This document shows positions 10,817 to 42,143 of a DNA stretch of 64,000 nt, in pieces; the first letter of the stretch is position 1, and each line of letters begins with the position of its first letter. The stretch is from Candidatus Poriferihabitaceae bacterium (GTDB lineage: Bacteria; Pseudomonadota; Gammaproteobacteria; Arenicellales; Poriferihabitantaceae): positions 1,348,792-1,412,791 of the forward strand of contig CBDBQH010000003.1 in assembly GCA_965208975.1 (NCBI GenBank). The letters are read 5' to 3'. Below the pieces are notes generated by a model. It was not told the origin of the DNA and made no database searches. It saw only the letters and a program-made list of their open reading frames with translations. The translations under genes and the position numbers were made by a program.

Positions 10817-10948
10817 CGGCTTGACCCCGGCACTGCCAACCCGATGAAGCGTGACCTGGAACTGGTCAAGAACGCCCCAGACTGACCGGCTACGAATGTC
10901 CACGCATCTGCCGTGGACTGATTGAAGAAGCCGGGCTGCTCTCTTCAA

Positions 10949-11833
10949 TCAACCCAAATCCTTCCTCGGCAATCGGGTGACCAGGCTTGAGGTGTCATGG
11001 CGGTTTCCACCGGCGGCCTGGATTTCGGCGTAGTATCCATCGACAATCCGGGTGACGGGCAGTTCCGAGTGGTTGCGCTCGGCCTCTTCCATACACAGAC
11101 CCAGATCCTTCCTCATCCAGTCCACCGCGAATCCGAACTCGAATTCATTATTCAACATGGTTTCATGTCGATTGATCATTTGCCATGACCCGGCCGCGCC
11201 CTTTGAGATGACATCGAAAACCTTCATGCCGTCCAGACCCGCATTGACGCCAAAAGCCAGTCCCTCGGACAATCCCTGAACCAGTCCGGCAATGCAGATC
11301 TGGTTTACCATCTTGGTCAGCTGGCCGGAGCCGGCCCCGCCCATCAGCAATGCGGAGCGGGCAAAACAGTCAATCAATGGTCTGGCGCGATCAAACACGG
11401 CCTGATCACCGCCGACCATCACCGTCAATATCCCGTTTTCGGCGCCCGCCTGCCCGCCGGAAACCGGAGCGTCGAGAAAGCCGAAATCATTTTTCCCGGC
11501 ATGGTCGTACAGTTCCCGCGCGATATTGGCGGAAGCGGTTGTGTGATCAATAAAAACCGCGCCGGGGCGGATTGAATGGAATGCGCCATCCGCGCCGGTG
11601 GTTACGCTACGCAGGTCATCATCATTACCCACACAGCAAAACACGAAATCCGCGTCTGCCGCGGCCAGGGCCGGGGTCAACGCATGGGCGCCGCCATATT
11701 CAGCAACCCATTTCTCGGCTTTTGCGGTTGTCCGGTTATAAACACAAACCGAATGGCCGGCGGTTGCCAGATGCCCGGCCATTGGGTAACCCATAACGCC
11801 AAGACCAATAAAAGAGACTTTGATGTTGTTCAT
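10949..11833 (-). CDS. NAD(P)-dependent beta-hydroxyacid dehydrogenase (3-hydroxyisobutyrate dehydrogenase family)
   Basis: 294 aa. N-terminal FIGLGVMGYPMAGHL Rossmann motif, DAPVSGG and the GAGSGQLTKMVNQ block. Confidence 0.85.
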   Translation of the reverse strand: MNNIKVSFIGLGVMGYPMAGHLATAGHSVCVYNRTTAKAEKWVAEYGGAHALTPALAAADADFVFCCVGNDDDLRSVTTGADGAFHSIRPGAVFIDHTTASANIARELYDHAGKNDFGFLDAPVSGGQAGAENGILTVMVGGDQAVFDRARPLIDCFARSALLMGGAGSGQLTKMVNQICIAGLVQGLSEGLAFGVNAGLDGMKVFDVISKGAAGSWQMINRHETMLNNEFEFGFAVDWMRKDLGLCMEEAERNHSELPVTRIVDGYYAEIQAAGGNRHDTSSLVTRLPRKDLG

Positions 11834-24559: not shown

Positions 24560-24580
24560 TGCTACCCGCGTGTTGCAGTA

Positions 24581-25018
24581 TCATAGGGTTCGGGTTGACC
24601 CAGGCTTCCCAAGGAAAGCCTGGAGACGTTCGGTAGTTATCGCTATATCTCGCAATTCACATTCCCATACTGTAATCACTTCCCAACCATTTTCTTCCAA
24701 CAATGCAATATTGTGTGTATCACGAGCTTGATTTTGCTTCAGTTTGGTCAGCCAATAATCTCGATTGGTAGCAGGAATTCGAACCCGTTCACAGTCGGTA
24801 TGGTAGTGCCAGAAACAGCCGTTTACAAAAACGACTTTGTGACGTGATGGGAATACCAGATCAGGTTTGCCGGGTAGGTCGGTTCGATGCAAGCGATAGC
24901 GATAACCGAGACCATGCAACAGGCATCTTACCCGCATCTCCGGCTTCATACCCTTTGATTTGACCCGCCCCATTATGCGGCTACGGACCTGAGGCGATAC
25001 ATTATCAGCCATAACCAT
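24581..25018 (-). CDS. vsr: very short patch repair endonuclease
   Basis: 145 aa. MKPEMRVRCLLHGLGYRYRLH, LPGKPDLVFPSRHKVVFVNGCFWH. Lies 21 nt upstream of dcm on the same strand. Confidence 0.92.
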   Translation of the reverse strand: MVMADNVSPQVRSRIMGRVKSKGMKPEMRVRCLLHGLGYRYRLHRTDLPGKPDLVFPSRHKVVFVNGCFWHYHTDCERVRIPATNRDYWLTKLKQNQARDTHNIALLEENGWEVITVWECELRDIAITTERLQAFLGKPGSTRTL

Positions 25019-27413: not shown

Positions 27414-27503
27414 AAAATGAGCCAACACAATATCTGGCTTCAGAACCCCGGATTCCCGGTTGACACCCGGATTCCCGGTTGTGATCCGGATATGCTTGAT
27501 TGT

Positions 27504-27534
27504 CCGGTTTCAGGCTGGAAACCGGCTTTTGTTG
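27504..27534 (+). terminator. rho-independent terminator downstream of the HD-domain gene
   Basis: Perfect 8-bp stem CCGGTTTC/GAAACCGG (27504-27511, 27518-27525), 6-nt loop, then CTTTTGTTG. Confidence 0.6.
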
Positions 27535-27990
27535 CGCCGCCGGTAAAAAACGGCTTCGTGTAATCGCCTGTGTCGCACTTTCAGGGGTTACCCTTGCCGT
27601 TTTTGGGTTGGGTCAATATCCGGCTTTCCAGCCTGCCACGCGCTGGACGCACTGGATGGGATTCCCGGCTATCGTCCTGATCGCGGTGTCCTGATCGCGG
27701 TTGCACAAACAGGCCGCACAGTCTGGCAGTCTTCACCTGTCGCCCCTGTGGCTATGGTTGACGGGTAAACGACGTTACCCGTTGGATTACCGGCCATGAC
27801 CTTCTCGCAAGGGTTTATCCGGTTGCGGTTCCCAGGGCGCGATATTGTTCGCTATCAATCGCGGCCACCGCGCTGGCTACCATCTGATAGCATTTTCGTT
27901 TGAGTTGGCGCCGTCTGGATCAAAAAATGCTATCGCTGTTTCTATTGACCAATCGTGACCCGCTCCGCCTTCAGGAAAACCCGCTATCGT

Positions 27991-28395
27991 TTATTCCTCT
28001 ATCAGGTGCCCGTATCTGTATTCTTCTTTATAAGCCTTGTCGCCTGGCTTTTTGGTTACCCAAATTCCGTTCCTCTTGCCGTCTACATACGGGCCTTCCG
28101 AAACCATGCGGCCAGCCAGGAATGTATCTACCCAATGCCCGTTTTTCTCGCCGTCTACAACCGGCCCTGTTCCAGTTCCGCCGTTTGGTAGGTCGATGGT
28201 CTGCCCCTGGGTCTCTTGCCAGGCTGTTTGTATCAAGGCTTCAATCATCCGTGACCGGGTGACCGGGTGCATCCACGCCAGTTCGTCCAGTTCGTCCCGT
28301 CTGGCCGGATGAAGTCGGATATTGACTTGTGCCCGTTTGTCCGCCGGGTCGGTTACCCGGTCAGACCAGCGCGCATAATGCTTGTGTTTGTTCAT
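27991..28395 (-). CDS. chimeric ribbon-helix-helix protein: RHH N-terminus (repeat-encoded) fused to a MORN-repeat-like C-terminus
   Basis: The N-terminal 68 aa are near-identical to the 40103-40450 product (KRAQVNIRLHPARRDELDELA...TRSRMIEALI, a beta-alpha-alpha RHH pattern). The C-terminal part, GEKNGHWVDTF...YVDGKRNGIWV, resembles MORN/YwqK-type repeats and begins where nucleotide homology ends (28191). Confidence 0.55.
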   Translation of the reverse strand: MNKHKHYARWSDRVTDPADKRAQVNIRLHPARRDELDELAWMHPVTRSRMIEALIQTAWQETQGQTIDLPNGGTGTGPVVDGEKNGHWVDTFLAGRMVSEGPYVDGKRNGIWVTKKPGDKAYKEEYRYGHLIEE

Positions 28396-28877
28396 CGGCT
28401 GATCCGGCTAATGTATAGCCAGTCCGAATTGTGGATTGTGTGAATCAATCCAGTGAAGTCATCAGCCAGCCGGTAGCCAAGCGGATAGCGGAGGTTGTGA
28501 CGGGTATATTAGGCAGTGGGAGCTTGCAGTTGTCGATGGTTGTGGTGCGTCATGGCAAACAACAACCGATGGTATTGGTCAGTACCGAGCGGATACGGGG
28601 TCGTTTGCAAGGGGAGCGATTGATTCAATCGTATATGGGTCGTTGGGCCTGTGAGGAAGGGTATCGGTTCAGCAAGCAGGGGTTTGGATTGGAGAAGGTT
28701 CAAGCCCGGAAACTGGCGACCTTGCAGAATCTGGTTGCACTGGCGACGTTAGCCTGGGGATTGCTGGCCTGTCACCAGAATCAGGGGCAGAAACTCATCT
28801 ACAAGGCGAAACGGCAAAAGAGTCACAAACCCCTGGTTTTCCCGTTCTACACGCTGTTATCGGGCTGGCAGGCGTTA
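28191..28877 (+). repeat. 687-bp direct repeat, copy A
   Basis: Colinear with 40246-40932 at a constant offset of 12055 nt. No indels detected from ORF and junction comparison. Scattered substitutions. Confidence 0.9.
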
Positions 28878-28991
28878 TTTGCGGATGCCAAAACCCTTTT
28901 TTATGACTGGTGGAGAAAACCCAAACGCCCCCCACCCAGACAGGCTGACCTGTTCATCAATAACGGGCGGCTTGCGCCCATCCTCTCATGA
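28431..28991 (+). mobile_element. IS4-family DDE transposase, C-terminal fragment (186 aa)
   Basis: Contains the Y-(2)-R-(3)-E-(6)-K signature (YMGRWACEEGYRFSK). Lacks the N-terminal catalytic D residues and DNA-binding region. GTG start. Confidence 0.65.
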
Positions 28992-29240
28992 AAAAATGGG
29001 GAGACCTTAGTTTATATGCTTGTTGCCCATATCTGATATAATCCGATAATTCAACCACTAACGTTTATGAGTAATAGTTTATGAGTGATAGAAAATCCAG
29101 CCCGGCGAAAAAAACTTCCAAACAATCAGAAAGTAGTGGTAAATTTCCTCGCTCCCAACCAACTAATCCAGCAGATAAGAGACATATAAACAAAACGACC
29201 GATACAATGAGGCCCCCACCGAAACCGAAAAGATAAATCC

Positions 29241-29780
29241 ATGTCCATGTCAAAAAGCCAATTTTCAGATTACTCTGACAGAATGTGGGAGTTACTCTTT
29301 TCAGTGCGTCGATCTTTTCATTACCATGAGCATCGGGAACGGTTTTTCACACTGCTGCATAACATGGTAAATTTAACCTGGATAATCTGTGGAACCCTTG
29401 CCGTGTGGAAATTGATGGAAAGTGACACACAGATATATTTAGTCGCTGTTCCAACTATTGCGTCTGTGATAGACATTATTATTGGTTTTGCTTCTAAAAT
29501 ATCTGTGCACAAGGTTCTGAAACAAAGATACCTGCAATTGGAAACGGAAATTGTCAGTGACCCGGACAATCAGAAATATGTGGATTTTCATCGTAAACGC
29601 AGAGTTATCGAATCGGATGAGCCACCTAAATTACATGCGTTGGATGTGCTTTGCCACAACGAAGTGGTCCGCGCTTCTTACCCCCCTGAGGATGCCAGGG
29701 AACATTTGGCAAAAGTTCCATGGTTGCCCCGATGCTCTGCTCAACTTTTGTCCTGGCCCAAGACAATGAGTTCAATATGA
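29241..29780 (+). CDS. 2-TM membrane protein with SLATT-like architecture
   Basis: 179 aa. Cytoplasmic helix (RRSFHYHEHRERFF), two adjacent TM helices (LTWIICGTLAVW, IYLVAVPTIASVIDIIIGF), then the helix SVHKVLKQRYLQLETEI. The layout resembles SLATT effectors. Family not verified. Confidence 0.5.
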   Translation: MSMSKSQFSDYSDRMWELLFSVRRSFHYHEHRERFFTLLHNMVNLTWIICGTLAVWKLMESDTQIYLVAVPTIASVIDIIIGFASKISVHKVLKQRYLQLETEIVSDPDNQKYVDFHRKRRVIESDEPPKLHALDVLCHNEVVRASYPPEDAREHLAKVPWLPRCSAQLLSWPKTMSSI

Positions 29781-29876
29781 GCGCTTTGGTAAAGGACAGG
29801 CGCTCCCGGCAATAAAGTCTCTCACTGATTCATCCGGCAACCTTGATGGACCTGCTGCATAAGTTCTCACAGAATT

Positions 29877-31727
29877 ATGGATCGAACCCGGAAATATCAT
29901 GAGAGGCTGATCGGATTGCTCAAAACCGATGTGCGCTTCATTGATGATGAAGGGGAGCTGGTCAAGGCGGCAGTGATTGACCGCGCCTGGAAAATGGACC
30001 ACGGCCTGATGAGACTGTTGCTTGGCGATGAAAGAATAAAGACACAGTTCTTTGATGAAATTGAAGGGCATTGGCTTTTCAATACGAACACATTCATTGA
30101 CTACCTCTCCGATAAAAACTTCCTGGCCAATTCATATACCCGATTCCGCAACCGGATTGGTTTGAACATTGACAATAAATTCCTGCGACAGCGGGGCGAA
30201 GTATCCCTGGTTTGGCCATACAAGGATTGCGTACTGGAAGGCGGACAGACCAAAGAGGAGGAAAAACGCAAGGAGATTTTCTTCAATGAAATTCTGGCAC
30301 AGGACGAGATCGACCGATTACTCGACCCGAAAGTAATCACCAACTGGAAACGCTATACGATTGACGGTGATCAGAAAGTTACCGGGATCAGGCGGGATGA
30401 TGCCGGCGTAATCCGGGAAAATCTGATTATCAAGGGCAACAACCTGCTGGCATTACATACACTGAAAAAACAGTTCCGGGGCAAGGTAAAGCTGATTTAT
30501 ATTGATCCTCCATTTAATACAGAACGAGACAGTTTTACCTATAATGACAGTTTTACACATTCAGCATGGCTAACTTTTATACGGAGCCGACTTCTGGTTG
30601 CTTATGATCTTTTAAGGGCCGATGGAAATATTTTTGTACATGTTGACAACAATGAATCTCATTACATGAAGATCGTGCTGGATGAAGTTTTTGGAAGGGA
30701 AAATTTTGTAAATGAAATTATTTGGCACAAAGGAAGAGAAGGGGGTAGTTCGAGGTCACACTCAAAGAGTTCAGCAATGCCAACTGAATATCAGAATATT
30801 TTCATTTTTGCGAAAAACAAGTCATCGAGATTTTGGAACCCACCACTAGGCCCATATAAAAAATCCACTATTGGCCGAATTGAGAAAGATTCAAAAGGCT
30901 GGTTTTATACGAGGGGTCGAATGGGTAGAACACCAGCCGAATGGGAATTGCAAGCAGGATCAGGATTGAAAACATACATTTCTGACAGAGTTGATCTTGA
31001 TAAAGACAGAGTCATAGAAACCCTGACTGCACCCAATGCAAAATATGTAGCCATAGGAGATGTTTGGGGAAGAGAATTAGTAAAAAATTCAAAGGAAGCA
31101 AACTACGACACATCTAAACCAGAAGGATTGCTGAAGATGATCATTGAGGCAGCATCTAATCCGGGTGATTTAGTACTTGATTTCTTTCTTGGGAGTGGGA
31201 CGACTATGGCAGTATGCTTAAAATTGGATAGGAGATGTATAGGTATAGAACAGTTAGAAGGAGGAATAAACGCACTGATTCCGAGACTAAAAAATGTCAT
31301 CGGAAAAAATCTACAACAGAAGGAAAGCTTCCTCGAAGAAATTGAATGCGACACTGGCGGCATCTCCAAATCCGTAAACTGGCAAGGCGGTGGCGATTTT
31401 ATCTACTGTAAGTTGATGCGATACAACGAAGTCTGGATGGATAAAATCCAGGCCGGACGGTCTTCCGAGGAACTTGTAAAACTCTGGAAAGACATTGCTG
31501 AAAACTCCTTCCTGAACTGGTATGTGAACCCTGAAATCCCGGCGGAGGCGCTGACTGATTTTATTGCCATCGGGAAAAAGGAAAACGGGCTGGAGAAGCA
31601 AAAAACATTATTAGCGGAACTGCTGAACAAAAATCAACTCTACGTCAATCTTTCGGAAATAGACGACCAGGATTTTGCCGTCAACGAGGAAGATAAAGCA
31701 TTGAACAGAAAATTCTATGGATACTAA
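29877..31727 (+). CDS. mod: type III restriction-modification methyltransferase (Mod)
   Basis: 616 aa. N-terminal block NSYTRFRNRIGL, motif IV IYIDPPFNT before motif I LVLDFFLGSGTT (beta-class order), and the flanking AWLTFIRSRL...DGNIFVHVD typical of Mod. Confidence 0.9.
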   Translation: MDRTRKYHERLIGLLKTDVRFIDDEGELVKAAVIDRAWKMDHGLMRLLLGDERIKTQFFDEIEGHWLFNTNTFIDYLSDKNFLANSYTRFRNRIGLNIDNKFLRQRGEVSLVWPYKDCVLEGGQTKEEEKRKEIFFNEILAQDEIDRLLDPKVITNWKRYTIDGDQKVTGIRRDDAGVIRENLIIKGNNLLALHTLKKQFRGKVKLIYIDPPFNTERDSFTYNDSFTHSAWLTFIRSRLLVAYDLLRADGNIFVHVDNNESHYMKIVLDEVFGRENFVNEIIWHKGREGGSSRSHSKSSAMPTEYQNIFIFAKNKSSRFWNPPLGPYKKSTIGRIEKDSKGWFYTRGRMGRTPAEWELQAGSGLKTYISDRVDLDKDRVIETLTAPNAKYVAIGDVWGRELVKNSKEANYDTSKPEGLLKMIIEAASNPGDLVLDFFLGSGTTMAVCLKLDRRCIGIEQLEGGINALIPRLKNVIGKNLQQKESFLEEIECDTGGISKSVNWQGGGDFIYCKLMRYNEVWMDKIQAGRSSEELVKLWKDIAENSFLNWYVNPEIPAEALTDFIAIGKKENGLEKQKTLLAELLNKNQLYVNLSEIDDQDFAVNEEDKALNRKFYGY

Positions 31728-31773
31728 ACCGCTAATGACACAGGAATATTCAGCGCATCATCAGGAGTAAATT

Positions 31774-32001
31774 ATGAGAACAGAAATACAAACTACCCAA
31801 GATATATGGCCCATGCTGACACCCGTTGTTTTCGTTCCCCATGCGGATAATGAATACCAACGGTTGGTGGCTGTACTGGATAATTTGATTGATGTGGTGG
31901 GCGAAGATGAAAGCCACCCCCTGGCCTCACTCATGGAGGTCATTGGCGTGTTGATAGAAAAATATGAGGATGACCACGTTCCTGAACTGACGGAGGCATA
32001 A
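31774..32001 (+). CDS. small protein resembling only the N-terminal (non-HTH) part of HigA-type antitoxins
   Basis: 75 aa. Strong SD AGGAG 7 nt upstream of the ATG. LTPVVFVPHADNEYQRLVAVLDNLIDVVGEDESHPLASLMEVIGVLIEKYE parallels the E. coli HigA N-terminal region. No room for an HTH before res. Confidence 0.5.
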   Translation: MRTEIQTTQDIWPMLTPVVFVPHADNEYQRLVAVLDNLIDVVGEDESHPLASLMEVIGVLIEKYEDDHVPELTEA

Positions 32002-32052
32002 CAATCAGAAGACGGGCTCATTGGGAAACCAATCATTTCACCGGGCGATAAG

Positions 32053-34623
32053 ATGGCTGACAAGTATTTGTATGAGATACTGGATTCCGTCTCCCAAATG
32101 GGATTGTTAAAGAAAGAAATCCCCCGTTATCTCACGGATAATCTGAACCCCGCCCTTCAACTGCGTCCCTATCAGGAAGAAGTATTCGCCCGTTTTTTCC
32201 ACTGTCTTGCCAATGATTTTCCCGGCAAGAATCAGCCGTTGCATTTTCTGTTCAACATGGCAACTGGCAGTGGCAAAACCCTGATCATGGCGGGGTTGAT
32301 TCTCTATCTGTACGGGAAAGGCTATCGAAACTTTCTGTTTTTTGTCAACGCCTCGAATATCATTGAAAAGACAAAGGATAACTTCCTCAATCCGCTCTCA
32401 TCCAAATATCTGTTCAACGAAAACATCCATTACGGTACAAAAAGAATTGAGATAGCTCCAGTCACCAATTTTGAAGGCGCCAACGAAAACGGCATCAACA
32501 TCTGTTTTACCACTATCCAAAAACTGCATTCCAGTCTGACTATTGATAAAGAAAACGCGTTGACCTTTGAGGATTTCAGTAGAGGAAAAACCGTCCTTCT
32601 CGCAGATGAAGCCCACCACATCAACGTAAACACGAGGGCCGGAAAGAAATTATTTGAGAGTTGGGAAAATACGGTAGAACGCATCTTTATTCAGCACAAA
32701 AATAATTTACTGCTGGAATTTACCGCCACCCTGGATTACACCGATACAAATCTTGTCGATAAATACCGTAACAAAGTGTTATACCGATATGACCTGCGAC
32801 AGTTCCGCAATGACGGCTATTCCAAAGACGTTTGCATTGTTCAGGCAGATTTTGAGGAGAAAGACCGGATCATACAGGCGCTTATCCTCAACCAGTACAA
32901 GCAGGAAGTTGCAGCGAAATACACTATCAATTGCAAGCCGGTCATCCTGTTCAAGGCACAAAGAACAATTGCCCAATCCAAAGAGAACAAAGCCAGATTC
33001 CATAAGATCATTGAGAATCTTTCAGGCGATGACATTGACCGGATTTGGGACCAGTCAAACCTGCCACTGGTAAAGAGTGCATTTACTTTCTTCAAAGAAA
33101 ATCATATCTCTGCCAATCAGCTGGCGAAAAGGCTTCGCAGAGAATTTGATGAGAGTCGTTGTATTTCCGTAAATGAAGAAAAAGAAAAAGAAAATCAACA
33201 GATATTACTCAATACTCTGGAAGAACGGGATAACCATATTCGAGCCATTTTTGCAGTACAGAAACTGAATGAGGGTTGGGATGTCCTGAACCTGTTCGAT
33301 ATTGTCCGTTGTTATACGAATCGGGATGCAAAGGCTGGGAAACCGGGAAAAACAACTATTGCCGAAGCGCAATTAATCGGACGCGGAGCGCGTTATTTCC
33401 CTTTTGTTACCAACGACAACCCCGACCGATACCGGCGGAAATTCGACCAGAATCTGACTTCTGAACTGCGTGTGCTGGAAGAGATGCACTACCACAGTAT
33501 AAATGATTCCCGCTATATCTCTGAGTTACGTACTGCGTTGATTCAGGAAGGTATGGTAGATGAACGAGAGGTGACCAAGCCGCTCACACTAAAGGATTCG
33601 TTCAAGGCCACAGAGTTTTACCGGCATGGATTGGTCTACCTGAACAGCCGGGTCAGAAACCGATATGAAAAGGTTTACTCATTTTCTGATATGGGCGTTT
33701 CGTTACAAAACTATCAATATACGCTTGCAACCGGCCGGGGAGCATCTCAGTCCATCCTCGATAACAACGACAGTGTCAGTCAGGTCAAAGAAGCAGGCTC
33801 ACAAGAAATCAAAGTAAGGGATATTCCTGTTCACATAGTCAGAAATGCCATTGCCCAAAATTCTTTCTTTTCTTTCAACTCCATTAAAAAATATTTTCCT
33901 CATATTGAATCGGTGCGCCAATTCATTGATTCGGATGACTATCTCGGGGGGTTGGCAATCACATTTCAGGGAAATTTCCCCAACCCGTTACCTAATAAGG
34001 TCCAACTGGATGCGGTAACGGGTCTGCTCGGGGAAATCGAATCTGAGATGCGTAGAAATGCTACGGAATACAGGGGAACAGAAACATTCAAGCCATACGG
34101 GGTTGGTTCTGTATTCACGGCTAAAACCCTCAAATTGATTGAAGGCAGTGAAAGGGCCAATGGTGACGATCCGTTTGTTTCCGACAGGGAATGGTATGTC
34201 TTCAGCGCAAACTACGGGACCGGAGAGGAAAAGGCTTTTGTCCGGATGCTTGACCGCCAGATGGGTACACTGAAAGAAAAATACGATGAAATTTACCTGG
34301 TCCGCAATGAAAGGCATTTCAAGATTTACAGTTTTGACGACGGACAGGCGTTTGAACCGGATTTTGTTCTTGCTCTACGGGAGAAAAATGGAAATATGCT
34401 TACCTACCAGATGTTTGTTGAGCCTAAAGGAAAACATCTAAAAGATCATGACAAGTGGAAAGAGGAGTTTCTGCAACAAATTACGGACAAATTCAAGGGA
34501 AAAACACTGGAATTCAAAACGAAAATCAAGACCCAAAAATACAGGCTGGTGGGGGTTCCGTTTTATAACAATGAAGATGAAAACAGATTTAAGGAAAGTT
34601 TGTATGAGGCGGTGGGAATGTAG
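32053..34623 (+). CDS. res: type III restriction enzyme Res subunit (SF2 helicase + PD-(D/E)XK nuclease)
   Basis: 856 aa. Motif I MATGSGKT, II LLADEAHH, III FTAT, VI QLIGRGAR. C-terminal nuclease FEPDFVL...FVEPKG. Confidence 0.9.
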   Translation: MADKYLYEILDSVSQMGLLKKEIPRYLTDNLNPALQLRPYQEEVFARFFHCLANDFPGKNQPLHFLFNMATGSGKTLIMAGLILYLYGKGYRNFLFFVNASNIIEKTKDNFLNPLSSKYLFNENIHYGTKRIEIAPVTNFEGANENGINICFTTIQKLHSSLTIDKENALTFEDFSRGKTVLLADEAHHINVNTRAGKKLFESWENTVERIFIQHKNNLLLEFTATLDYTDTNLVDKYRNKVLYRYDLRQFRNDGYSKDVCIVQADFEEKDRIIQALILNQYKQEVAAKYTINCKPVILFKAQRTIAQSKENKARFHKIIENLSGDDIDRIWDQSNLPLVKSAFTFFKENHISANQLAKRLRREFDESRCISVNEEKEKENQQILLNTLEERDNHIRAIFAVQKLNEGWDVLNLFDIVRCYTNRDAKAGKPGKTTIAEAQLIGRGARYFPFVTNDNPDRYRRKFDQNLTSELRVLEEMHYHSINDSRYISELRTALIQEGMVDEREVTKPLTLKDSFKATEFYRHGLVYLNSRVRNRYEKVYSFSDMGVSLQNYQYTLATGRGASQSILDNNDSVSQVKEAGSQEIKVRDIPVHIVRNAIAQNSFFSFNSIKKYFPHIESVRQFIDSDDYLGGLAITFQGNFPNPLPNKVQLDAVTGLLGEIESEMRRNATEYRGTETFKPYGVGSVFTAKTLKLIEGSERANGDDPFVSDREWYVFSANYGTGEEKAFVRMLDRQMGTLKEKYDEIYLVRNERHFKIYSFDDGQAFEPDFVLALREKNGNMLTYQMFVEPKGKHLKDHDKWKEEFLQQITDKFKGKTLEFKTKIKTQKYRLVGVPFYNNEDENRFKESLYEAVGM

Positions 34624-34812
34624 GGCTGTTGACTAATACTTTGGTTAATGAATCTGGTAAAAGCTTGTTGGGCAATGTGAAATGTTGATACCACCAAGGT
34701 TAAAAAGAGCGACAGGCCCACGATAGTATAGGACCATGCACCCCGATGGAGTATTATCAACAACTCACACTCAGTGCCTGAGTTTCATATGCACTGAACC
34801 CGAACACCTTCG

Positions 34813-34841
34813 TTGCATACATAGAGTACCACCCACATAAT
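34813..34841 (+). promoter_or_regulatory. candidate sigma70 promoter of the TIR-SLATT pair (TTGCAT-N17-CATAAT)
   Basis: TTGCAT 34813-34818, 17-nt spacer, CATAAT 34836-34841, about 43 nt upstream of ATG 34884, which has SD AAGGGGA. Confidence 0.45.
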
Positions 34842-34883
34842 ATTCGGGAATGTGAAAATTTCGTCCAAAATAAGGGGATATAA

Positions 34884-35312
34884 ATGAGTACAAGACAAAT
34901 CCACGTTTTTATTAGTCATTCATGGGCTTACTCAAATCATTATCAAACTCTAGCTGATTGGATTTTTAATCAAAAGTGGAGCGTGGAGCAGGCATCCCTG
35001 GATTTTCGAGATTATTCTGTTCCACAAAGTGACCCAGTCCATAATGCAAATAATGACACGCAATTAAGACAAGCGCTTTACAATCAAATATCACGAAGCC
35101 ACGTTATTGTCATCCCAACTGGAATGTATGCCTCTTACAGTAAGTGGATACAAAAAGAGATTGATGGAGCTAGCCATTATAGAAAGCCTGTATTGGCAGT
35201 TAACCCCTGGGGCGCTCAAAGAACTTCTTCATATGTTAAAGATGTAGCAGACAAAATCGTTGGCTGGAATGCCAAGACTGTTGTTGGCGGGATTTGGGAA
35301 TTGTACAAGTGA
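34884..35312 (+). CDS. TIR-like domain protein (DUF1863/ThsB-like)
   Basis: 142 aa. IHVFISHSW start strand, VIVIPTGMYASYSKWIQKEIDGA containing the S-x-W-x(3)-E glutamate context used by TIR NADases, KPVLAVNPWG. Confidence 0.8.
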   Translation: MSTRQIHVFISHSWAYSNHYQTLADWIFNQKWSVEQASLDFRDYSVPQSDPVHNANNDTQLRQALYNQISRSHVIVIPTGMYASYSKWIQKEIDGASHYRKPVLAVNPWGAQRTSSYVKDVADKIVGWNAKTVVGGIWELYK

Positions 35313-36196
35313 TGAACGAATTTAAAATAAAATCTAGTGAAATGCCTGGATTGTATCAGTCTGCTGACCGGGCATCTCTTGATGCTCAAAGTAGTTACTT
35401 TACGGGCTTGCGATGGTATCTCGTCTTGCTGATTTGTGCTGCTTTTATTTCGTATGCTCGGCCCAATGACCTTATAGGTGCACTACTATCAGCAAGTCTA
35501 TTTTTAATCACTCTTGGAATTCTTGTGTTTATTCGTGTCAAAAAGCCTGATGACATTTGGTATAACGGCAGAGCTGTTGCTGAGTCAGTTAAAACAAGGG
35601 CTTGGCGATGGATGATGAGAGCTGAGCCTTATGAAGACCACCAAAACATTGAAATAGTTTCTAAACAATTCATTAACGATCTAAAAGCAATACTTAGTCA
35701 AAATAAAAGCTTATCCCATTCTCTTCAATCAACGGATGCTGTGGATGATCCTATTTCCCAGCCGATGAAGGATATAAGGACACTTTCCGTGTCTGAGAGA
35801 TTAGGAATATATGTAGATCAAAGAATTCAGAATCAAGTCAATTGGTATTGGACTAAATCCGGCTTTAATAAGCGTCGAGCCCAGCAATGGTTTTGGGTGT
35901 CCGTATTTTTGCATGCGTCAGCAATAGCCATGTTGTTATATCGGATTAAAGATCCAACCTTCTCTCTTCCGGTAGAGGTGGTTGCTACCTCAGCAGGAGC
36001 GGTATTAACTTGGTTACAAGCCAAAAAGCATAACGAACTAAATTCCGCATACGCTCTTGCTGCACATGAAATTGTATTGATAAAGGGAGAGTCTGCTTCT
36101 GTTTGTCGTGAACAGCAGCTTTCGGAATATGTGGTAAATAGTGAGGCAGCTTTCTCACGAGAACATACTCAATGGGTTGCTCGAAAAGGAGACTAG
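35312..36196 (+). CDS. SLATT/DUF4231-type membrane protein with two tandem 2-TM modules
   Basis: ATG overlaps the TIR stop (TGATG). Module 1 has TMs WYLVLLICAAFISY and LLSASLFLITLGILVFI followed by WYNGRAVAESVKTRAWRWMMRAEPY. Module 2 has RIQNQVNWYWTKSGFNKRRAQQWFWVSVFLHASAIAMLLY plus a further TM, then ELNSAYALAAHEI. Confidence 0.75.
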   Translation: MNEFKIKSSEMPGLYQSADRASLDAQSSYFTGLRWYLVLLICAAFISYARPNDLIGALLSASLFLITLGILVFIRVKKPDDIWYNGRAVAESVKTRAWRWMMRAEPYEDHQNIEIVSKQFINDLKAILSQNKSLSHSLQSTDAVDDPISQPMKDIRTLSVSERLGIYVDQRIQNQVNWYWTKSGFNKRRAQQWFWVSVFLHASAIAMLLYRIKDPTFSLPVEVVATSAGAVLTWLQAKKHNELNSAYALAAHEIVLIKGESASVCREQQLSEYVVNSEAAFSREHTQWVARKGD

Positions 36197-36348
36197 TTGC
36201 TAACAAAGCACTGCTACCGGAAAAAATTTTCTACTACTCACTAAACGGGCGTCCAGAACCATCCGAACAAGGTTAGCCCCATTGTTTCCAAAATCTGATG
36301 TTTTTGTGTCATCCTGAAAGATGATGGTGCGCGCAGATGTACGGCGTT

Positions 36349-36378
36349 TTGTATTATTAGAAACTAGTGCTGTATGAT
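36349..36378 (+). promoter_or_regulatory. candidate sigma70 promoter of the OLD-type gene (TTGTAT-N18-TATGAT)
   Basis: TTGTAT 36349-36354, 18-nt spacer, TATGAT 36373-36378, 26 nt upstream of ATG 36405. Confidence 0.4.
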
Positions 36379-36404
36379 GCACGGTTTTGTATCGGTTGCA
36401 GAAT

Positions 36405-38377
36405 ATGAAATTAACACACGCTCGGGTCCAAAACTTCCGTTCTATTCTTGATACAGGGAAGTTTTCTATAAACGACCTTTGTTGCCTTGTTGGGAAAAAT
36501 GAGGCAGGTAAAACTGCAACACTCACTGCTGTACAGTCAATTCTTCCATACGGGGATCCACAAACGTATTTTGATGTAACGGAAGACTACCCCCGTCGTT
36601 TTGCTACACGCTACCACGAAAGGCATAAAAATTCTGAGGCTGTTGTGGTAGAGACATGGTGGCAGCTTTGTGATGAGGGGTATGAACGGCTTTGTGAAGA
36701 ATTTAGCGAGGACGCTGTAAGGTCTCGTGAATTTCGCATTTACAAAAAATATAACACCGAAAATACTATATGGGATTTTGATCTGGATGAAGCTGTTGTA
36801 GTAGCGAGTATTCTTAAAGCCCATAGGTTGAATGCTACTGAGCAAGCCAGTCTTTCAAAATGTTCGACTATTTTGCAAGTTTTGGAAAAAATTGAAACCC
36901 GTGAGGAACCAACTGAAAAATTGAGAGCGATTGCTAAACATTTCGAGAACTATCAAAGATCAATTCAGTATAAAGCAACCGAATTGGTTGGTGATCTGGT
37001 TCCGACCTTCTTTTATACGTCTCATTATGACCGAATGAGCGGTAAATTGTCGATACAGAAAATTGCAGACAGAAAATTGCAGAGGACAAAAAAAATGATA
37101 ATGTTGATCCAGAAGATGAAATATTCCTGGATTTTCTGCGTCTTGCCGGAACTTCGCTGGAGGAATTGAATGAGGTGTCACGGTTCGAAGAACTCAACGC
37201 CAAATGTGAAGCAGCCTCCGCGGATATCACGGATCAAATATTCAAATACTGGTCTCAAAATGACAATCTTGAGGTAGAAGTAAAGCTCAGCGAGGGGCGA
37301 CCGGGCGATCCAGCACCTTTTAATTCTGGCGCCGTGGCTCGAGCTCGAGTATATAATCGGCTGCACCGGGCGAGTGTTTCCTTTTCTGATCGCAGTGCAG
37401 GTTTTGTCTGGTTTTTCTCCTTTCTTGTCCAGTTTGCCATGATGAGGCGCAATACAAGCAATGTAATCATACTACTTGACGAGCCTGGCCTGACGCTACA
37501 CGGAAAGGCACAAGCTGACTTGCTTCGCTATATTGAAGCTGAGCTTCTGCCTGACCACCAGGTTGTTTACACAACCCATTCCCCATTCATGGTTCCGCCG
37601 CAGAGGTTAGCTGATTGTCGTGTAGTTGAAGACGTTGTCAAACGCGACGAGCGAGACCGTCCTGTATCTGAAGGAACCAAGATTACAGATGACGCGATGA
37701 GCACAGACAAGGACACATTGTTCCCGTTACAAGGTGCGCTTGGCTACTCCGTCACTCAATCACTTTTCGTCGGTAAGAACAGCCTCCTTGTTGAAGGCAC
37801 ATCCGACATCCTGTATTTGCAGGCGCTATCGAGTGAAATTGAAAAGCGCGGTGGGATGTCACTCGACCCGAAATGGACACTCTGCCCTGCCGGGGGCATA
37901 GACAACCTGAGGCCATTCGTTTCCTTGTTCGCTGGAAACCACCTCAACATCGCGGTTCTTTCGGATCAAGCACAAGGAGATAAAAGTAAGGTTGAACGGC
38001 TCAGGAGAAGCGAAATTCTTGCCGCTGAACGGTTCCATACGATCGCTGAATTGCTTGACGAAGATGAAGCAGATATTGAGGACTTGTTTGTATCTGAATT
38101 GTTCTGTCGGATCGTAAATGAAGCTTATGGGTTAGAAGGAAATCATGCAGTTACGCCAGAAAAATTGAACGAAGTCGCAAATACAGAAAGGCAGGTTAAA
38201 CGGGTGGAGGCTTATTTCAATCGTCTGCCAGAAGCCATTCCAACTTTCAGCCATTTTCGTCCAGCAGAGTGGCTCATTCACAATGGAGAGATTTTGTCTG
38301 AGAAATCGGATTCGGTAAAAGGCACGCTTGAAAGAGCAGAGAAAATTTTTAAGATTTACAACGAAATATTGATATAG
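36405..38377 (+). pseudogene. OLD-family-type ABC ATPase + TOPRIM nuclease gene, frameshifted by a 14-bp tandem duplication
   Basis: Walker A VGKNEAGKT (N-terminal ORF 36387/36405-37169). Walker B IILLDEPG, H-loop TTHSP and TOPRIM-like LLVEGTSDILYL (ORF 37166-38377). Deleting one 14-bp copy joins the two ORFs in frame, giving ...GKLSIQKIAEDKKNDNVDPEDEIFLDFLRLAGTSLEELNEVSRF... Confidence 0.8.
37055..37083 (+). repeat. 14-bp tandem duplication (cagaaaattgcaga x2; period-14 identity spans 29 nt)
   Basis: 37056-37069 equals 37070-37083. The preceding base also matches. Confidence 0.95.
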
Positions 38378-39329
38378 CTGTCCCACTATAATTACAAAGC
38401 CCACCCGCCCCCGGCCCCAGATGTTCCTCTTTGCGCTCTTCCGCTAACTGAACCTGTCTCCCCCGCTCTGCAAACCGCGCCCTGTCCTGTTGTGAGCGCT
38501 TGCCGTGACATTTCGGGCAACTCACGCCCGGCTGATAATACTCGCTGGCCTTGTCTTTCTCCGTAACCGGCATGCGGCAGCCGTGGCACTGGTCATAACG
38601 GCCCCGGTTCAAATCATGGTCAACCGTGACCCGTTCATCGAACACGAAACATTCGCCCCGCCATCGGGACTCCGATACCGGGACGGTTGCGAGATAATTC
38701 AGGATTCCGCCTTGCAGATGATATACGGATTCAAAGCCGTTCTGTTTCAGGAAGGCCGTGGCTTTTTCGCAACGGATGCCGCCGGTGCAATACATGGCGA
38801 TCTTTTTGTGTGTTTCCGGGTCCAGGTTTTCCAATGCGTATTGCGGAAATTCCCTGAAATTGGTGGTATGGGGATTGACCGCATTTTCAAAGCGCCCCAC
38901 CTCGATCTCGTATTCGTTGCGGGTATCGACCACAAGCGTTTCGGGGTCTTCCAGCAGCGCATTCCAGTCTTCGGGATCAATATAGGTCCCCGCCAGTACC
39001 TGCGGATCAATATCTTCGACCCCCATGGTGACGATTTCTTCTTTCAGCTTGACCCGGGTGCGTTTGAACGGCATCCGGTCGGTCCCGGACTGCTTGTATT
39101 CAATACCGGAAAAACCGGCTTGCCCCTCCAGCCACTTCAGAAATTGATCAATCGCTTGCCGCTCACCGGCGATCGTGCCATTGATCCCTTCTTTCGCAAG
39201 CAACAAGGTGCCGGTGAGCGACAAGCCGGATAATTGATCCAGCATCGGTTGTTGCAGGGAAACGTAATGGGCAAGCGGCGTGAATTTATAAAATGTGCAA
39301 ACCACCAGGTTGTTTGCAGGTTCTGTCAT
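38349..39329 (-). CDS. trhO: rhodanese-domain tRNA uridine(34) hydroxylase (UPF0176/YceA family)
   Basis: 326 aa. N-terminus VCTFYKF..., EGINGTIAG, rhodanese active-site loop CTGGIRCEK, C-terminal Cys cluster CHGC...CPKCHG. Confidence 0.85.
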   Translation of the reverse strand: MTEPANNLVVCTFYKFTPLAHYVSLQQPMLDQLSGLSLTGTLLLAKEGINGTIAGERQAIDQFLKWLEGQAGFSGIEYKQSGTDRMPFKRTRVKLKEEIVTMGVEDIDPQVLAGTYIDPEDWNALLEDPETLVVDTRNEYEIEVGRFENAVNPHTTNFREFPQYALENLDPETHKKIAMYCTGGIRCEKATAFLKQNGFESVYHLQGGILNYLATVPVSESRWRGECFVFDERVTVDHDLNRGRYDQCHGCRMPVTEKDKASEYYQPGVSCPKCHGKRSQQDRARFAERGRQVQLAEERKEEHLGPGAGGLCNYSGTAISIFRCKS

Positions 39330-39413
39330 GGCATCTGTTCAGGATGGGCCGGGGCGCCCTTTGGGCAACAGGAGCAACCGGGGGAATACAGCCCGTATAA
39401 TCGATCTGTAGAA

Positions 39414-39647
39414 TCAGGAGTCCATGATCTCATCCGCTAACCTGTTCAGATCTTCCCAATCGTCTTCTTCATCAAGCCAGACCACAGCCTGACATACGAT
39501 CACCGACTGACCATCAAAGGTCATGGCTGGAGAGCCGTACAGTTGATAGCCCATTTCCAGCGCTTCGCTGACCCGACGGCAAAAGGAGACATCATCCGGG
39601 CCGGTCAGCAATCGGTAGGGTAGTTTGTTTTCAGATAGATTGGACAT
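39414..39647 (-). CDS. DUF1737-like small protein
   Basis: 77 aa. YRLLTGPDDVSFCRRVSEALEMGYQLYGSP matches the DUF1737 pattern as I recall it. Confidence 0.6.
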   Translation of the reverse strand: MSNLSENKLPYRLLTGPDDVSFCRRVSEALEMGYQLYGSPAMTFDGQSVIVCQAVVWLDEEDDWEDLNRLADEIMDS

Positions 39648-39726
39648 GACATAAAACCTTTTTGTAATTATCAGTTACTATACCCCAAATCCCGGTTCCG
39701 TTTCTACGCTCACCCGTCCACACCCG

Positions 39727-40017
39727 ATGACTCCCCGCATAAAGGTCTCCACCGATCAAAAAGGTAGCTGGAGTGTGTCGAAACGACTACTGCCATACCT
39801 GTGGAAGCATCGCGCGCGGGTCGGGGCGGCGCTGTTGTTTCTGGCGCTGGCTCGCATGGCTAATGTGACGGTGCCGGTGACGTTGAAATGGATCGTCGAC
39901 GACCTGGACATGGAGGCGCTGGTTGCTGTGCCCGTCGGGTTACTCGTGGCTTATGGCTTGCTGCGATTCAGTACCATCGCGTTCAATGAAATTCGCAATG
40001 TGATTTTTTCCCGCACC
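39727..40017 (+). pseudogene. 5' fragment (~97 codons) of an ABCB/Atm1-type ABC transporter permease-ATPase gene
   Basis: RLLPYLWKHRARVGAALLFLALARMANVTVPVTLKWIVDDL...YGLLRFSTIAFNEIRNVIFSR is a typical first-TM region. The reading frame then runs into unrelated sequence, and no TMD or NBD follows anywhere downstream. Confidence 0.6.
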
Positions 40018-40102
40018 GGAATTCAGATAGCCGTTCTTTATAAAACCTCTATCGCGGATTTGGGGGGCCACTTGTCATTTCCGGCTACTCCGTCCAGTTC
40101 GT

Positions 40103-40450
40103 TTAATCCTCTGGTGACCGCCGGACAATCAACCCGTCCCGCCCCATTTCTGCCCGTAACTGTTCCAGGCTCTTACCTTTCCCGGTCGCTGGTCGATTGC
40201 TGGCCGGGGTCGATTGATCAACCTCGCCGCGCTCAATGGTGGCCGGGTCGATGGTCTGCCCCTGGGTCTCTTGCCAGGCTGTTTGTATCAAGGCTTCAAT
40301 CATCCGTGATCGGGTGACCTGGTGCATCCGCGCCAGGTCGTCCAGTTCGTCCCATCTGGCCGGATGAAGTCGGATATTGACTTGTGCCCGTTTGTCCGCC
40401 GGGTCGGTTACCCGGTCAGACCAGCGCGCATAATGCTTGTGTTTGTTCAT
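40103..40450 (-). CDS. ribbon-helix-helix protein (115 aa)
   Basis: Paralogue of the 27991-28395 N-terminus with a different C-terminal tail. Confidence 0.6.
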   Translation of the reverse strand: MNKHKHYARWSDRVTDPADKRAQVNIRLHPARWDELDDLARMHQVTRSRMIEALIQTAWQETQGQTIDPATIERGEVDQSTPASNRPATGKGKSLEQLRAEMGRDGLIVRRSPED

Positions 40451-40932
40451 CGGCTGATCCGGCTAATGTATAGCCAGTCCGAATTGTGGATCGTGTGAAT
40501 CAATCCAGTGAAGTCATCAGCCAGCCGGTAGCCAAGCGGATAGCGGAGGTTGTGACGGGTATATTAGGCAGTGGGAGCTTGCAGTTGTCGATGGTTGTGG
40601 TGCGTCATGGCAAACAACAACCGATGGTACTGGTCAGTACCGAGCGGATACGGGGTCGTTTGCAAGGGGAGCGTCTGATTCAATCGTATATGGGTCGTTG
40701 GGCTTGTGAGGAAGGGTATCGGTTCAGCAAGCAGGGGTTTGGATTGGAGAAGGTTCAAGCCCGGAAACTGACGACCTTGCAGAATCTGGTTGCACTGGCG
40801 ACGTTAGCCTGGGGATTGCTGGCCTGTCACCAGAATCAGGGGCAGAAACTCATCTACAAGGCGAAACGGCAAAAGAGTCACAAACCCCTGGTTTTCCCGT
40901 TCTATACGCTGTTATCGGATTGGCAGGCGTTA
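40246..40932 (+). repeat. 687-bp direct repeat, copy B
   Basis: See copy A. Boundaries located by base-by-base comparison at both junctions. Confidence 0.9.
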
Positions 40933-40950
40933 AAAGCGCTTTCAGGATGA
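40486..40950 (+). mobile_element. IS4-family DDE transposase, C-terminal fragment (154 aa, further truncated)
   Basis: Near-identical to 28431-28877. Diverges after ...TLLSDWQAL and stops. Confidence 0.65.
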
Positions 40951-41126
40951 ACCCACCTCTTCACGGATAACAGCGCTGTTTCGATCAAAAAATGCCGCAA
41001 GGTTGTATCCGACAACATCCCGCATGAAATCATAGGTCGATATCAACGGATTATTTGCTCCGATTCGCAGTTCATATCACCCCCGTCAATCCGTTTATAG
41101 AAATCGTCTCAGTATTCATCACAGTA

Positions 41127-42143
41127 TCATCGCCCCGATTTTCCAGAACCCATCCCAGCCCGTCGCTGGTTAATCCGGCGGGTCGCTTCCTCAGTACCAT
41201 CGTGCAGGGTATCGAGCCATTTGTCCCAGGGCATGAACGGGGTTCCGTAGTTGCATTCGAAGTATCGGTGATGGAGCTGATGGAACAGGTTGGCGACCCC
41301 GAGCGTGGATTTGCCCTTGATGACAATGGATTCGTAACCGACATGCCCGGTATAAGCCGACAGCGCGGTCAGATAGATATGGAAGAACATGTGGATCGGG
41401 TGGGAGGGAATGACCAGATGAATCAGCACGGTACTGAAATAAAACAGATGCTCAAGCGGGTGCATCGCTAACCCGGACCATGGCCCGATCGTGACGTTTT
41501 TGTGATGCAGGGCATGGGCAATCCGGTAGAGCGGTGGCCAGTGAATCAGCCGATGGATGAAGTAGAAGTGCATTGACGCCCATGCGGTCAATATCAGGAA
41601 CAGGCCAACAAACCAGTAAGGATTATCCGACCAGGTATTCCATAGAATGAGCTGATTGGCATACGCCCACATCAGCAATACCTGAAATCCTGTCCAGACC
41701 GTAACACCACTGGCGCAGGTCCAGAAGATATTGTCCCAAACCTGGTTGTTGAACAGGAATGTCCGGTTGTTTCGGGCTAATTCCCGATGCTCGTATCGTT
41801 GCACCTTGCCCTGGCATTTCCAGGTATGGAAATAAAGATGCAGGCCGCCCGCCGCCACCACGGAGAGACCGATATTGATCGCCCAAACCTGAAATATCCA
41901 GTCTGGCGAGAAGGTCTTCCAGTCCTCGATTCCCGGAGAGAGGTAAAACCACGTCACAATCCCCAGCAAGACAAAAATCATCATCTGGGATAATACAAAC
42001 CCCCTGCCCAGAATAAACTTCAATGCCTTGACGGGTTGCGGCGGCCATACGAAAATCGGCGGCATCACCAAAGGCAACTGCGGATGCCAGTTCCATGGCC
42101 CTCTTGTACGGTGGCTGGATTTCAGGGAAGCGGGGTCAGCCAT
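41127..42143 (-). CDS. fatty acid hydroxylase/sterol desaturase superfamily membrane protein
   Basis: 338 aa, hydrophobic, with three His boxes (HRLIH, HALHH, HQLHH). Starts 15 nt after the clpX stop. Confidence 0.75.
   Translation of the reverse strand: MADPASLKSSHRTRGPWNWHPQLPLVMPPIFVWPPQPVKALKFILGRGFVLSQMMIFVLLGIVTWFYLSPGIEDWKTFSPDWIFQVWAINIGLSVVAAGGLHLYFHTWKCQGKVQRYEHRELARNNRTFLFNNQVWDNIFWTCASGVTVWTGFQVLLMWAYANQLILWNTWSDNPYWFVGLFLILTAWASMHFYFIHRLIHWPPLYRIAHALHHKNVTIGPWSGLAMHPLEHLFYFSTVLIHLVIPSHPIHMFFHIYLTALSAYTGHVGYESIVIKGKSTLGVANLFHQLHHRYFECNYGTPFMPWDKWLDTLHDGTEEATRRINQRRAGMGSGKSGR

Follow-up and report, generated by a model that had tools for sequence, protein, structure and literature searches.

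Type VII Thoeris was described by Yirmiya et al. (bioRxiv 10.64898/2025.12.03.692087, December 2025) as the pairing of a ThsB TIR protein with a ThsH SLATT protein. Three such systems protected E. coli or B. subtilis; the TIRs made canonical cyclic ADP-ribose (cADPR) only upon infection, and cADPR supplied from outside was toxic to system-bearing cells (10.64898/2025.12.03.692087). We analysed a 64,000-nt stretch of contig CBDBQH010000003.1 from a Candidatus Poriferihabitaceae bacterium (the window, in whose positions all coordinates are given unless a relative is named), in which a pair of this kind stands in an AT-rich block. The same block holds a type III restriction-modification (R-M) system comparable to EcoP15I and EcoP1I, a broken gene for an OLD nuclease comparable to the class 1 enzymes of phage P2 (Old) and Thermus scotoductus (PDB 6p74), and a two-gene cassette with a small open reading frame (ORF) and a SLATT-fold membrane protein. 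The block is very probably a horizontally acquired mosaic anti-phage defence island with layered immunity; it has an IS4-type insertion sequence (IS) fragment on one side and the truncated 3' end of trhO on the other. The island consists mostly of known systems, and only the small-ORF/SLATT-fold cassette could be new biology. A preliminary description of the sequence had listed four defence-type modules, in the order SLATT-like protein, type III R-M, TIR/SLATT pair and OLD gene; family or fold matches bear out both the modules and their order, and all components have homology to defence families.

Thoeris, R-M and OLD modules compared with described systems

The third module consists of two genes:

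34884 to 35312, plus strand: ThsB, a TIR protein of 142 aa (ThsB_TIR, PF08937, E = 2.5e-16)
35312 to 36196, plus strand: ThsH, a SLATT_3+SLATT_1 membrane effector of 294 aa (SLATT_3, E = 5.6e-43; SLATT_1, E = 2.3e-31; Pfam and NCBIfam)

The stop of thsB and the start of thsH overlap by one base (TGATG). As in type VII Thoeris, a ThsB-type TIR of about 140 aa is encoded directly upstream of a SLATT membrane protein in a two-gene operon, and at the gene level we found no structural difference between the two. The glutamate at the catalytic position is conserved as well: Glu92 of ThsB is at least 90% conserved across 76 ThsB sequences. ThsB is 66% identical and 83% similar, in an ungapped alignment of 137 aa (E = 6e-72), to the validated TIR of Pseudohongiella nitratireducens SCS-111 (Table S1 in 10.64898/2025.12.03.692087), and only 22% identical to the TIR from the Alteromonadales scaffold. 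For ThsH, 1,840 homologues with identities of 68-91% were found across unrelated phyla; the same-strand ORF preceding the SLATT gene encodes a ThsB_TIR protein in 73 of the 75 metagenomic loci with enough upstream sequence.

Judged by the ThsB comparison, on which the orthology rests, the TIR and SLATT genes are a close orthologue of the characterised type VII Thoeris. The preliminary description had named a TIR-like protein with a SLATT/DUF4231 partner, and both family assignments stand; its remark that such effectors are only computationally predicted is outdated, type VII Thoeris having been validated (10.64898/2025.12.03.692087). If the pair works as its 66%-identical orthologue does, infection would cause the ThsB TIR to turn NAD+ into canonical cADPR, and cADPR would activate the four-transmembrane (TM) SLATT effector ThsH, with membrane disruption and cell arrest or death as the outcome. 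A related ThsB-ThsH locus (L082, 3445-6329) has two extra TIR_2 genes directly upstream of thsB, and ParE and BrnT toxin-antitoxin genes follow it.

The second module is a type III R-M system with an additional short ORF between its two genes:

29877 to 31727, plus strand: Mod, a type III methyltransferase of 616 aa (N6_N4_Mtase, PF01555, E = 1.7e-46; TypeIII_RM_meth, PF12564, E = 4e-19; PADLOC MTase_III, E = 3e-167)
31774 to 32001, plus strand: a HigA-type antitoxin relic of 75 aa (E = 7e-14 to amino acids 1-72 of a 133-aa HigA in the plasmid collection)
32053 to 34623, plus strand: Res, a type III restriction subunit of 856 aa (ResIII, PF04851, E = 1.8e-31; PADLOC REase_III, E = 3e-137 over residues 16-852)

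Mod carries DPPF at residue 210 and FLGSG at residue 437, and Res has kept the motifs GSGKT, DEAH, TAT, QLIGR and a C-terminal PD...EPK. The system is like the EcoP15I/EcoP1I type in its TypeIII_RM_meth domain with DPPF and FxGxG motifs, in the combination of a superfamily 2 (SF2) helicase with a PD-ExK nuclease, and in the position of mod upstream of res; it differs in that mod and res are split by 325 nt that contain the HigA relic. Both proteins match a single Mod/Res pair from a Thioclava plasmid at similar identity (39% and 43-49%), as expected of a cognate pair. The two window genes have the same strand and order, with the 325-nt spacer between them, whereas in the Thioclava plasmid system mod and res overlap directly. 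The spacer had no DNA match in plasmids, and Tandem Repeats Finder (TRF) detected no simple-sequence tract of the phase-variation type in mod. Given the intact motifs, Mod would methylate one strand of an asymmetric site, and Res, as SF2 ATPase and PD-ExK nuclease, would cut unmethylated incoming DNA.

The preliminary description had listed a 75-aa ORF between Mod and Res; its Mod and Res calls are confirmed by the profile matches, and the ORF can now be assigned to the N-terminal part of HigA. The matching full-length HigA proteins of 133 aa always follow HigB on plasmids (Leptospira, Acinetobacter). Neither HigB nor the C-terminal half of HigA, which bears the helix-turn-helix (HTH), is present anywhere in the window. 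We rejected the reading of the ORF as a controller (C) protein, as it has no HTH match and only the non-HTH N-terminal half of HigA matches. On these alignments the ORF is what remains of a toxin-antitoxin system and does not encode a controller protein.

The fourth module is a single gene with one lesion:

36405 to 38377, plus strand: pseudogene of a class-1-like OLD ATPase-TOPRIM nuclease (AAA_15, OLD-like_TOPRIM and PADLOC Old)
37056 to 37083, plus strand: exact 14-bp tandem duplication (CAGAAAATTGCAGA, two copies) that frameshifts OLD (read directly; TRF, 2.1 copies, 100% match)

A frameshifted OLD-type ATPase-TOPRIM gene had been predicted, and the lesion responsible for the frameshift is this duplication. 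When one 14-bp copy was removed in silico, a 652-aa ORF resulted that aligns without gaps over the junction to intact homologues of about 653 aa; coverage is 100% and identity reaches 83%. The motifs GKNEAGKT (Walker A), ILLDEPG (Walker B) and LLVEGTSD (TOPRIM) of the reconstructed protein are conserved in comparison with 13 homologues. In the 78%-identical homologue of L172, 14 nt are missing from the alignment precisely where the second copy lies; this gene is itself split into 211 and 442 aa (9369-11329) through another lesion. The homologue in L171 (10001-11719) is N-terminally truncated and lies amid five transposase genes, beside a type I R-M system and a KAP NTPase gene. An intact homologue (L081) is a stand-alone gene that adjoins GmrSD and DEAD/MZB genes in another defence island.

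The best PDB match of the OLD protein is the OLD-family nuclease 6p74, although this match is distant (E = 2e-8 over about 145 residues). No UvrD/GajB-type, retron or AriB-type partner adjoins OLD in the window or at L081. With an ABC-type ATPase at the N-terminus and a TOPRIM domain at the C-terminus, both encoded in a single gene that has no helicase partner, the protein resembles the class 1 enzymes; it differs from 6p74 (a chain of 528 aa) in being longer, at about 653 aa, and in that the window copy is broken by the duplication. Taken together, the evidence fits an OLD of class 1 type that is now presumably inactive, and from what is established for the family, loss of one 14-bp copy would restore its frame.

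Tandem duplications of two copies, with periods of 14-16 bp, are unusually frequent in the window. There are eight arrays in 64 kb, and about 2e-4 exact 14+14 repeats are expected by chance; the arrays lie at 711, 9372, 27674, 29063, 37055, 47863, 47937 and 58386 (also 45515). Exact 14-16-bp copies other than the OLD lesion are intergenic or at gene ends, and the imperfect period-15 arrays at 9372 and 58386 are inside ORFs. This distribution points to a genome-wide mutational process (e.g., slippage or IS-excision footprints) that is filtered by selection.

Composition, borders and flanks of the island

The island (29018-38400; 9,383 nt) has a guanine-plus-cytosine (GC) content of 43.2%, compared to 53.7% in the remaining window. 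In 1-kb windows, the mean GC is 0.432 for the island (maximum 0.486) and 0.537 for the rest (standard deviation 0.026, minimum 0.473; Mann-Whitney p = 5e-11), and the sliding-window profile drops from about 0.54 to 0.40-0.44 across approximately 29.0 to 37.5 kb. Uniform composition is thus ruled out, in agreement with the preliminary description, which had reported an AT-rich island of about 9.4 kb and whose spot counts (20/60 at 35281-35340 and 36/60 at 16561-16620) are exact. The GC content of third codon positions (GC3) is 0.33-0.49 in island genes versus 0.58-0.68 in the adjoining host genes (gor, an HD-domain gene, trhO, clpX, clpP, and tig). Within the island, the cassette and mod/res have GC3 values of 0.43-0.49, and thsB, thsH and OLD values of 0.33-0.37. 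These values divide the island into at least two compositional blocks and make it a mosaic with at least two sources.

The features at and around the borders are as follows:

28191 to 28877, no strand assigned: copy 1 of a 687-nt direct repeat (window self-blastn, 98% identity to 40246-40932)
28421 to 29017, plus strand: 3' fragment of an IS4-family element (87% DNA identity to 8376-8497 and 9141-9632 of relative L001)
38349 to 39329, minus strand: trhO, a host gene (UPF0176_N and Rhodanese matches; relatives align to residues 1 to about 308 of 326)
39727 to 40084, plus strand: N-terminal fragment (about 103-118 aa) of an ABC-transporter gene (tblastn/tblastx against the relatives L001-L007; homology stops at about 40035-40084)
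40246 to 40932, no strand assigned: copy 2 of the direct repeat, in which the IS fragment stops 140 nt earlier than in copy 1

The left border lies at 29017, where the IS fragment ends and where the native abc-trhO intergenic sequence resumes in L001. We placed the true end of the IS here, and not at the ORF stop at 28991, because the homologous IS in L001 ends there; that the left edge follows a transposase fragment had been correctly seen in the preliminary description, which had taken the ORF stop as its end. The right edge had been set within the last codons of trhO, and there the DNA alignment of trhO with seven relatives does break, after ...CATCTGGGGCC, at about 38400-38407. The last approximately 10 native codons of trhO are swapped for 18 novel codons that overlap the OLD stop.

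In the genome collection, the nearest homologues of trhO come from metagenome-assembled genomes of sponge-associated Arenicellales / Ca. Poriferihabitaceae, with trhO identities of 80-87%; an exact-sequence search with trhO and ThsH returned no matching contigs. A comparison with relatives had been suggested as a check on the island, and in all seven of the closest relatives no island genes lie within 10 kb of trhO, save for a 155-nt piece of res in L005. The deviant composition and this absence from the trhO locus, judged over a shared synteny of only about 1.7 kb, together mark the block as a defence island.

Several points weigh against an acquired and working island. Synteny with the seven closest relatives is limited to about 38400-40084 (trhO and the start of the ABC-transporter gene), and the locus is generally rearranged; the absence of the island is therefore weaker evidence than it would be in a syntenic genome. 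The piece in L005 (12120-12274; 155 nt) is 88% identical to the start of res (approximately the first 125 nt, together with 31 nt ahead of the gene); it sits 1.2 kb downstream of trhO in this relative and keeps the relative orientation seen in the window, which suggests that R-M at the trhO site may be old in the clade. As had been predicted from the ORFs, the domain search found no integrase or recombinase domain in any major ORF of the window. A search for an att-like repeat or a duplicated native trhO tail at the left border found neither, and there is no tRNA at the island borders, the tRNAs being 7 kb off. How, and in which direction, the island was acquired can therefore only be inferred. 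Promoter and terminator scans gave no enrichment over shuffled sequence. As for the genes themselves, the OLD frame is not intact, because the 14-bp duplication splits it, and the toxin-antitoxin relic between mod and res could disturb the expression of res.

The only mobility features at the borders are the IS fragment and the 687-bp repeats, which bracket the island, trhO and the ABC-transporter fragment; no Rfam matches were found in 27500-41500. The preliminary description gave no extent for this repeat. Copy 1 contains the N-terminus of a minus-strand ORF resembling a ribbon-helix-helix (RHH) protein (weak RHH_1 match) and a C-terminal fragment of an IS4-type transposase (DDE_Tnp_1, E = 1.1e-4). 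With direct repeats that are this similar on both flanks, the AT-rich block might be part of a larger unit of 12 kb (28191-40932) that was moved or duplicated as a whole through recombination between the IS-derived repeats, in which case the borders of the island would not be true mobile borders. The ABC-transporter gene, which is divergent from trhO in all seven relatives, is cut in the window (39727-40317) after about 103-118 codons, directly before copy 2, and the left-flank genes gor and HD are absent near trhO in the relatives. However, trhO and the ABC-transporter fragment are host-like in composition and synteny, and the composition breaks at 29018 and at about 38400, not at the repeats. 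We consider the 12-kb unit rather unlikely and prefer an island that ends at the compositional breaks. For the approximately 160 nt between the ABC-transporter break and copy 2 (40084-40246), no origin was identified.

The small-ORF/SLATT-fold cassette

The first module of the island is formed by two ORFs:

29081 to 29236, plus strand: small ORF of 51 aa, candidate upstream partner or leader of the SLATT-fold gene
29247 to 29780, plus strand: SLATT-fold 2-TM protein of 177 aa (phrog_11791, E = 1.5e-37)

A word-indexed search with the 177-aa protein yielded just three further homologues; a full profile search retrieved homologues in 2,076 representative clusters (E <= 1e-3). phrog_11791 is a PHROG of unknown function. 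A structure prediction with four sequences was unusable (predicted local distance difference test, pLDDT, 51), and an alignment of 81 sequences was used instead; the resulting AlphaFold2 model is all-helical, with a pLDDT of 92 and a predicted TM-score (pTM) of 0.86. In a fold search of BFVD, 9 of the top 24 matches are annotated as SLATT (best E = 4.7e-3, probability up to 1.00, TM-score up to 0.65), and the top matches are giant-virus proteins with this annotation. Among the 81 family members, 14 match, weakly, the PADLOC model for the 2TM effector of the cyclic-oligonucleotide-based antiphage signalling system (CBASS), three match models for SLATT proteins associated with reverse transcriptases (RTs), and 5-6 weakly match the SLATT or 4TM models of Pfam.

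Other results speak against a SLATT assignment. The 177-aa protein itself has no Pfam match even at E < 10 and no NCBIfam or PADLOC match. The fold search gave no match at E <= 1e-3, and the best PDB match had E = 0.49; the family profile found no match among PDB sequences. Membership in SLATT at the sequence level was rejected, as hhalign gave a probability of at most 1% against the SLATT_3 and SLATT_1 halves of ThsH. We therefore read the protein, from its predicted structure, as probably having a divergent SLATT fold and not as a member of a curated SLATT family; by sequence the relationship is weak. The SLATT-like 2-TM protein of the preliminary description accordingly holds at the level of family and fold, and not as a database match of the protein itself; its partner ORF (29081-29236) had been missed.

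The 51-aa ORF encodes a basic peptide with about 16% proline, few hydrophobic residues and the C-terminal motif TTDTMRPPPKPKR. A near-perfect 14-bp tandem duplication (GTTTATGAGTAATA, 2.1 copies) at 29063-29091, at the left edge of the island, duplicates the start-codon region of this ORF. In all 11 loci first examined, an equivalent ORF of 51-73 aa runs up to the start of the 2-TM gene; these loci include an integrative and conjugative element (ICE)-like contig, Mu-like prophages, Burkholderia phage BcepMu, Pseudomonas phage TC7, and plasmids of Klebsiella and Salinivibrio. The C-terminal consensus is roughly [IV]-x-[DN]-T-x-x-P-P-P-x-P, and the motif ends 5-17 residues before the stop. Further loci were found in IMG/VR through a back-translated DNA pattern (39 loci, 29 after dereplication). 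The motif [DNSP]T.{1,2}[PAS]P is present in 22 of the 29 dereplicated loci versus 7 of 411 control ORFs of the same contigs (Fisher p = 3e-25, which is optimistic, since the regular expression was relaxed after inspection of the data). In the IMG/VR loci, the position at which the small ORF stops ranges from 25 nt inside the downstream gene to 19 nt short of its start. The ORF is unannotated in BcepMu (L164, NC_005882.1, locus 3814-4002), where it lies between gp18 and gp19, and in phage TC7 (L165, locus 2805-2963) it is masked by the over-long start call of TC7_041.

The conservation of the small ORF can be read in two ways, as a protein partner or as a cis-acting leader. As a leader, the ORF would gate translation of the SLATT-fold gene through an XPPX sequence that stalls ribosomes, in a manner dependent on elongation factor P (EF-P), a few codons before the stop. 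PPP, APP and PPD are EF-P-dependent stalling motifs. Only the C-terminal motif of the [DN]-T-x-x-P-P-P type and its distance of 5-17 residues from the stop are conserved, the rest of the peptide being kept by composition, and the narrow range of positions in which the ORF ends relative to the downstream start would suit a leader. However, the conserved [IV]-x-[DN]-T ahead of the prolines is superfluous for a simple polyproline stall, and the steady length (about 51-62 aa) and the hydrophilic, basic character would also fit a disordered binding partner or an antitoxin-like inhibitor. On balance, we regard a purely cis-acting leader as somewhat unlikely.

The genomic context of the cassette differs from that of signal-dependent SLATT effectors. 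No neighbouring nucleotide-signal synthase or RT (SMODS, TIR, RT) was found in the 11 loci, and in 25 IMG/VR loci the nearest upstream genes encode HTH/S24 repressors or unknown proteins (HTH_3 in 7 of 25, S24 in 5 of 25). The cassette often follows a repressor of the CI/S24 type on the same strand, as in L163, L168/169, BcepMu (after gp17 and gp18) and TC7, and Mu-like prophages often have it in their immunity region. With the S-2TM and other SLATT effectors of CBASS and with RT-associated SLATT proteins, the 177-aa protein shares a predicted all-helical 2-TM hairpin and the SLATT-annotated top fold matches; it differs from them in the missing Pfam SLATT match and in its constant partner, which is a proline-rich ORF of about 55 aa and not a cyclase, TIR or RT gene.

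Exclusion genes expressed in the lysogen, e.g., rexAB of phage lambda, classically sit beside the prophage repressor and share its strand. The cassette resembles RexAB by analogy only, as a small two-gene module with a membrane protein located beside a prophage repressor on the same strand; it differs in its proteins, RexB being a 4-TM protein and RexA a soluble protein of about 280 aa. In the literature, we found no functional study of BcepMu gp19 or of a comparable prophage module of a 2-TM and a proline-rich protein.

A role in phage housekeeping has to be weighed at this point: the cassette could be a lysis regulator, a holin/antiholin accessory or a lysogeny-control module that was left behind as a prophage remnant and does not act in defence. 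The homologues in BcepMu and on the Klebsiella plasmid lie directly upstream of a lysis cassette (holin, endolysin, Rz/Rz1), and both the uncharacterised PHROG and the missing match of the window protein to any defence-database model would be expected under this explanation. In contrast, the cassette is also found far from lysis genes, on an ICE (L074), on a megaplasmid by ectoine genes (L167), beside a histidine kinase gene (L170) and in the defence island described here; its fold is like that of SLATT effectors, and its common place behind the repressor is that of rexAB. These observations make housekeeping unlikely.

Considering fold and genomic context, the cassette most likely encodes a SLATT-type exclusion or abortive-infection membrane effector that operates without a nucleotide-signal synthase. 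Such a phage-derived, signal-independent module might be gated by the small partner or by polyproline-dependent translation. More specifically, the cassette may represent an undescribed, self-contained phage-exclusion or abortive-infection system that is controlled by a partner or leader of about 55 aa with a [DN]-T-x-x-P-P-P motif, and that is carried by Mu-like and other temperate phages (in their immunity region), ICEs, plasmids and defence islands. We put this forward as a tentative proposal. The island had been described as the part of the window most likely to contain uncharacterised immunity functions; this expectation remains for the two-gene cassette only, the Thoeris pair having since been characterised.

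Assembly and decay of the island

The acquired mosaic was probably assembled in at least two steps, with the cassette and the R-M system (GC3 0.43-0.49) forming one contribution and Thoeris and OLD (GC3 0.33-0.37) the other. Assembly would have proceeded by IS-associated or illegitimate recombination, with no integrase involved. Partial decay has since set in, as seen in the broken OLD gene, the HigA relic and the clipped trhO. In the resulting arrangement, the type III R-M system would act on incoming DNA and Thoeris would respond to infection, the cassette might contribute exclusion, and the OLD ATPase-TOPRIM nuclease would be switched off through its 14-bp tandem duplication.

Decay may also have gone further; the island would then be a decayed relic that hardly functions any more, a graveyard of defence genes within the IS-rich genome of a symbiont, and no working multi-layer immune locus. 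The frameshift in OLD, the toxin-less half-gene of HigA between mod and res, the clipping of both trhO and the ABC-transporter gene, and the IS fragments and 687-bp repeat that flank the region are all in line with this explanation, as is the finding that OLD is truncated or split in relatives too (L171, L172). However, Mod, Res, ThsB, ThsH and both ORFs of the cassette are full length, with intact catalytic or conserved motifs, and the lesion in OLD is a single recent event in a gene that is otherwise 83% conserved. The other 14-16-bp duplications of the window keep out of coding sequence, which suggests ongoing selection. We consider a largely functionless remnant improbable and retain the reading of a defence island that is decaying in part.

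Some features elsewhere in the window were also recorded. On the minus strand, 4 kb upstream of the island, a further and separate modification module consists of a gene for a Dcm-type C5 cytosine methyltransferase of 459 aa (TIGR00675, E = 4e-90), followed by one for Vsr (TIGR00632, E = 2e-43); this stretch (23180-25018) has a lowered GC of 0.47-0.50, and no cognate nuclease was identified. A 102-nt inverted repeat (1860-1961 and 4380-4481; 81% complementary) surrounds a segment of 2.4 kb and may delimit a small mobile element. A homopolymer of 23 C is present at 9166-9188.

The island adds an instance of type VII Thoeris in a lineage of sponge symbionts. It also provides a natural "off" allele of OLD; the independent lesions in relatives are a hint that these symbionts can dispense with OLD or that the nuclease is costly to them. 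The findings are further evidence of a piecemeal build-up and erosion of defence islands in such IS-rich genomes, without dedicated integrases. The small-ORF/SLATT-fold cassette is widespread and unannotated; if it is a defence system, SLATT pore-formers would be deployable without second-messenger synthases.

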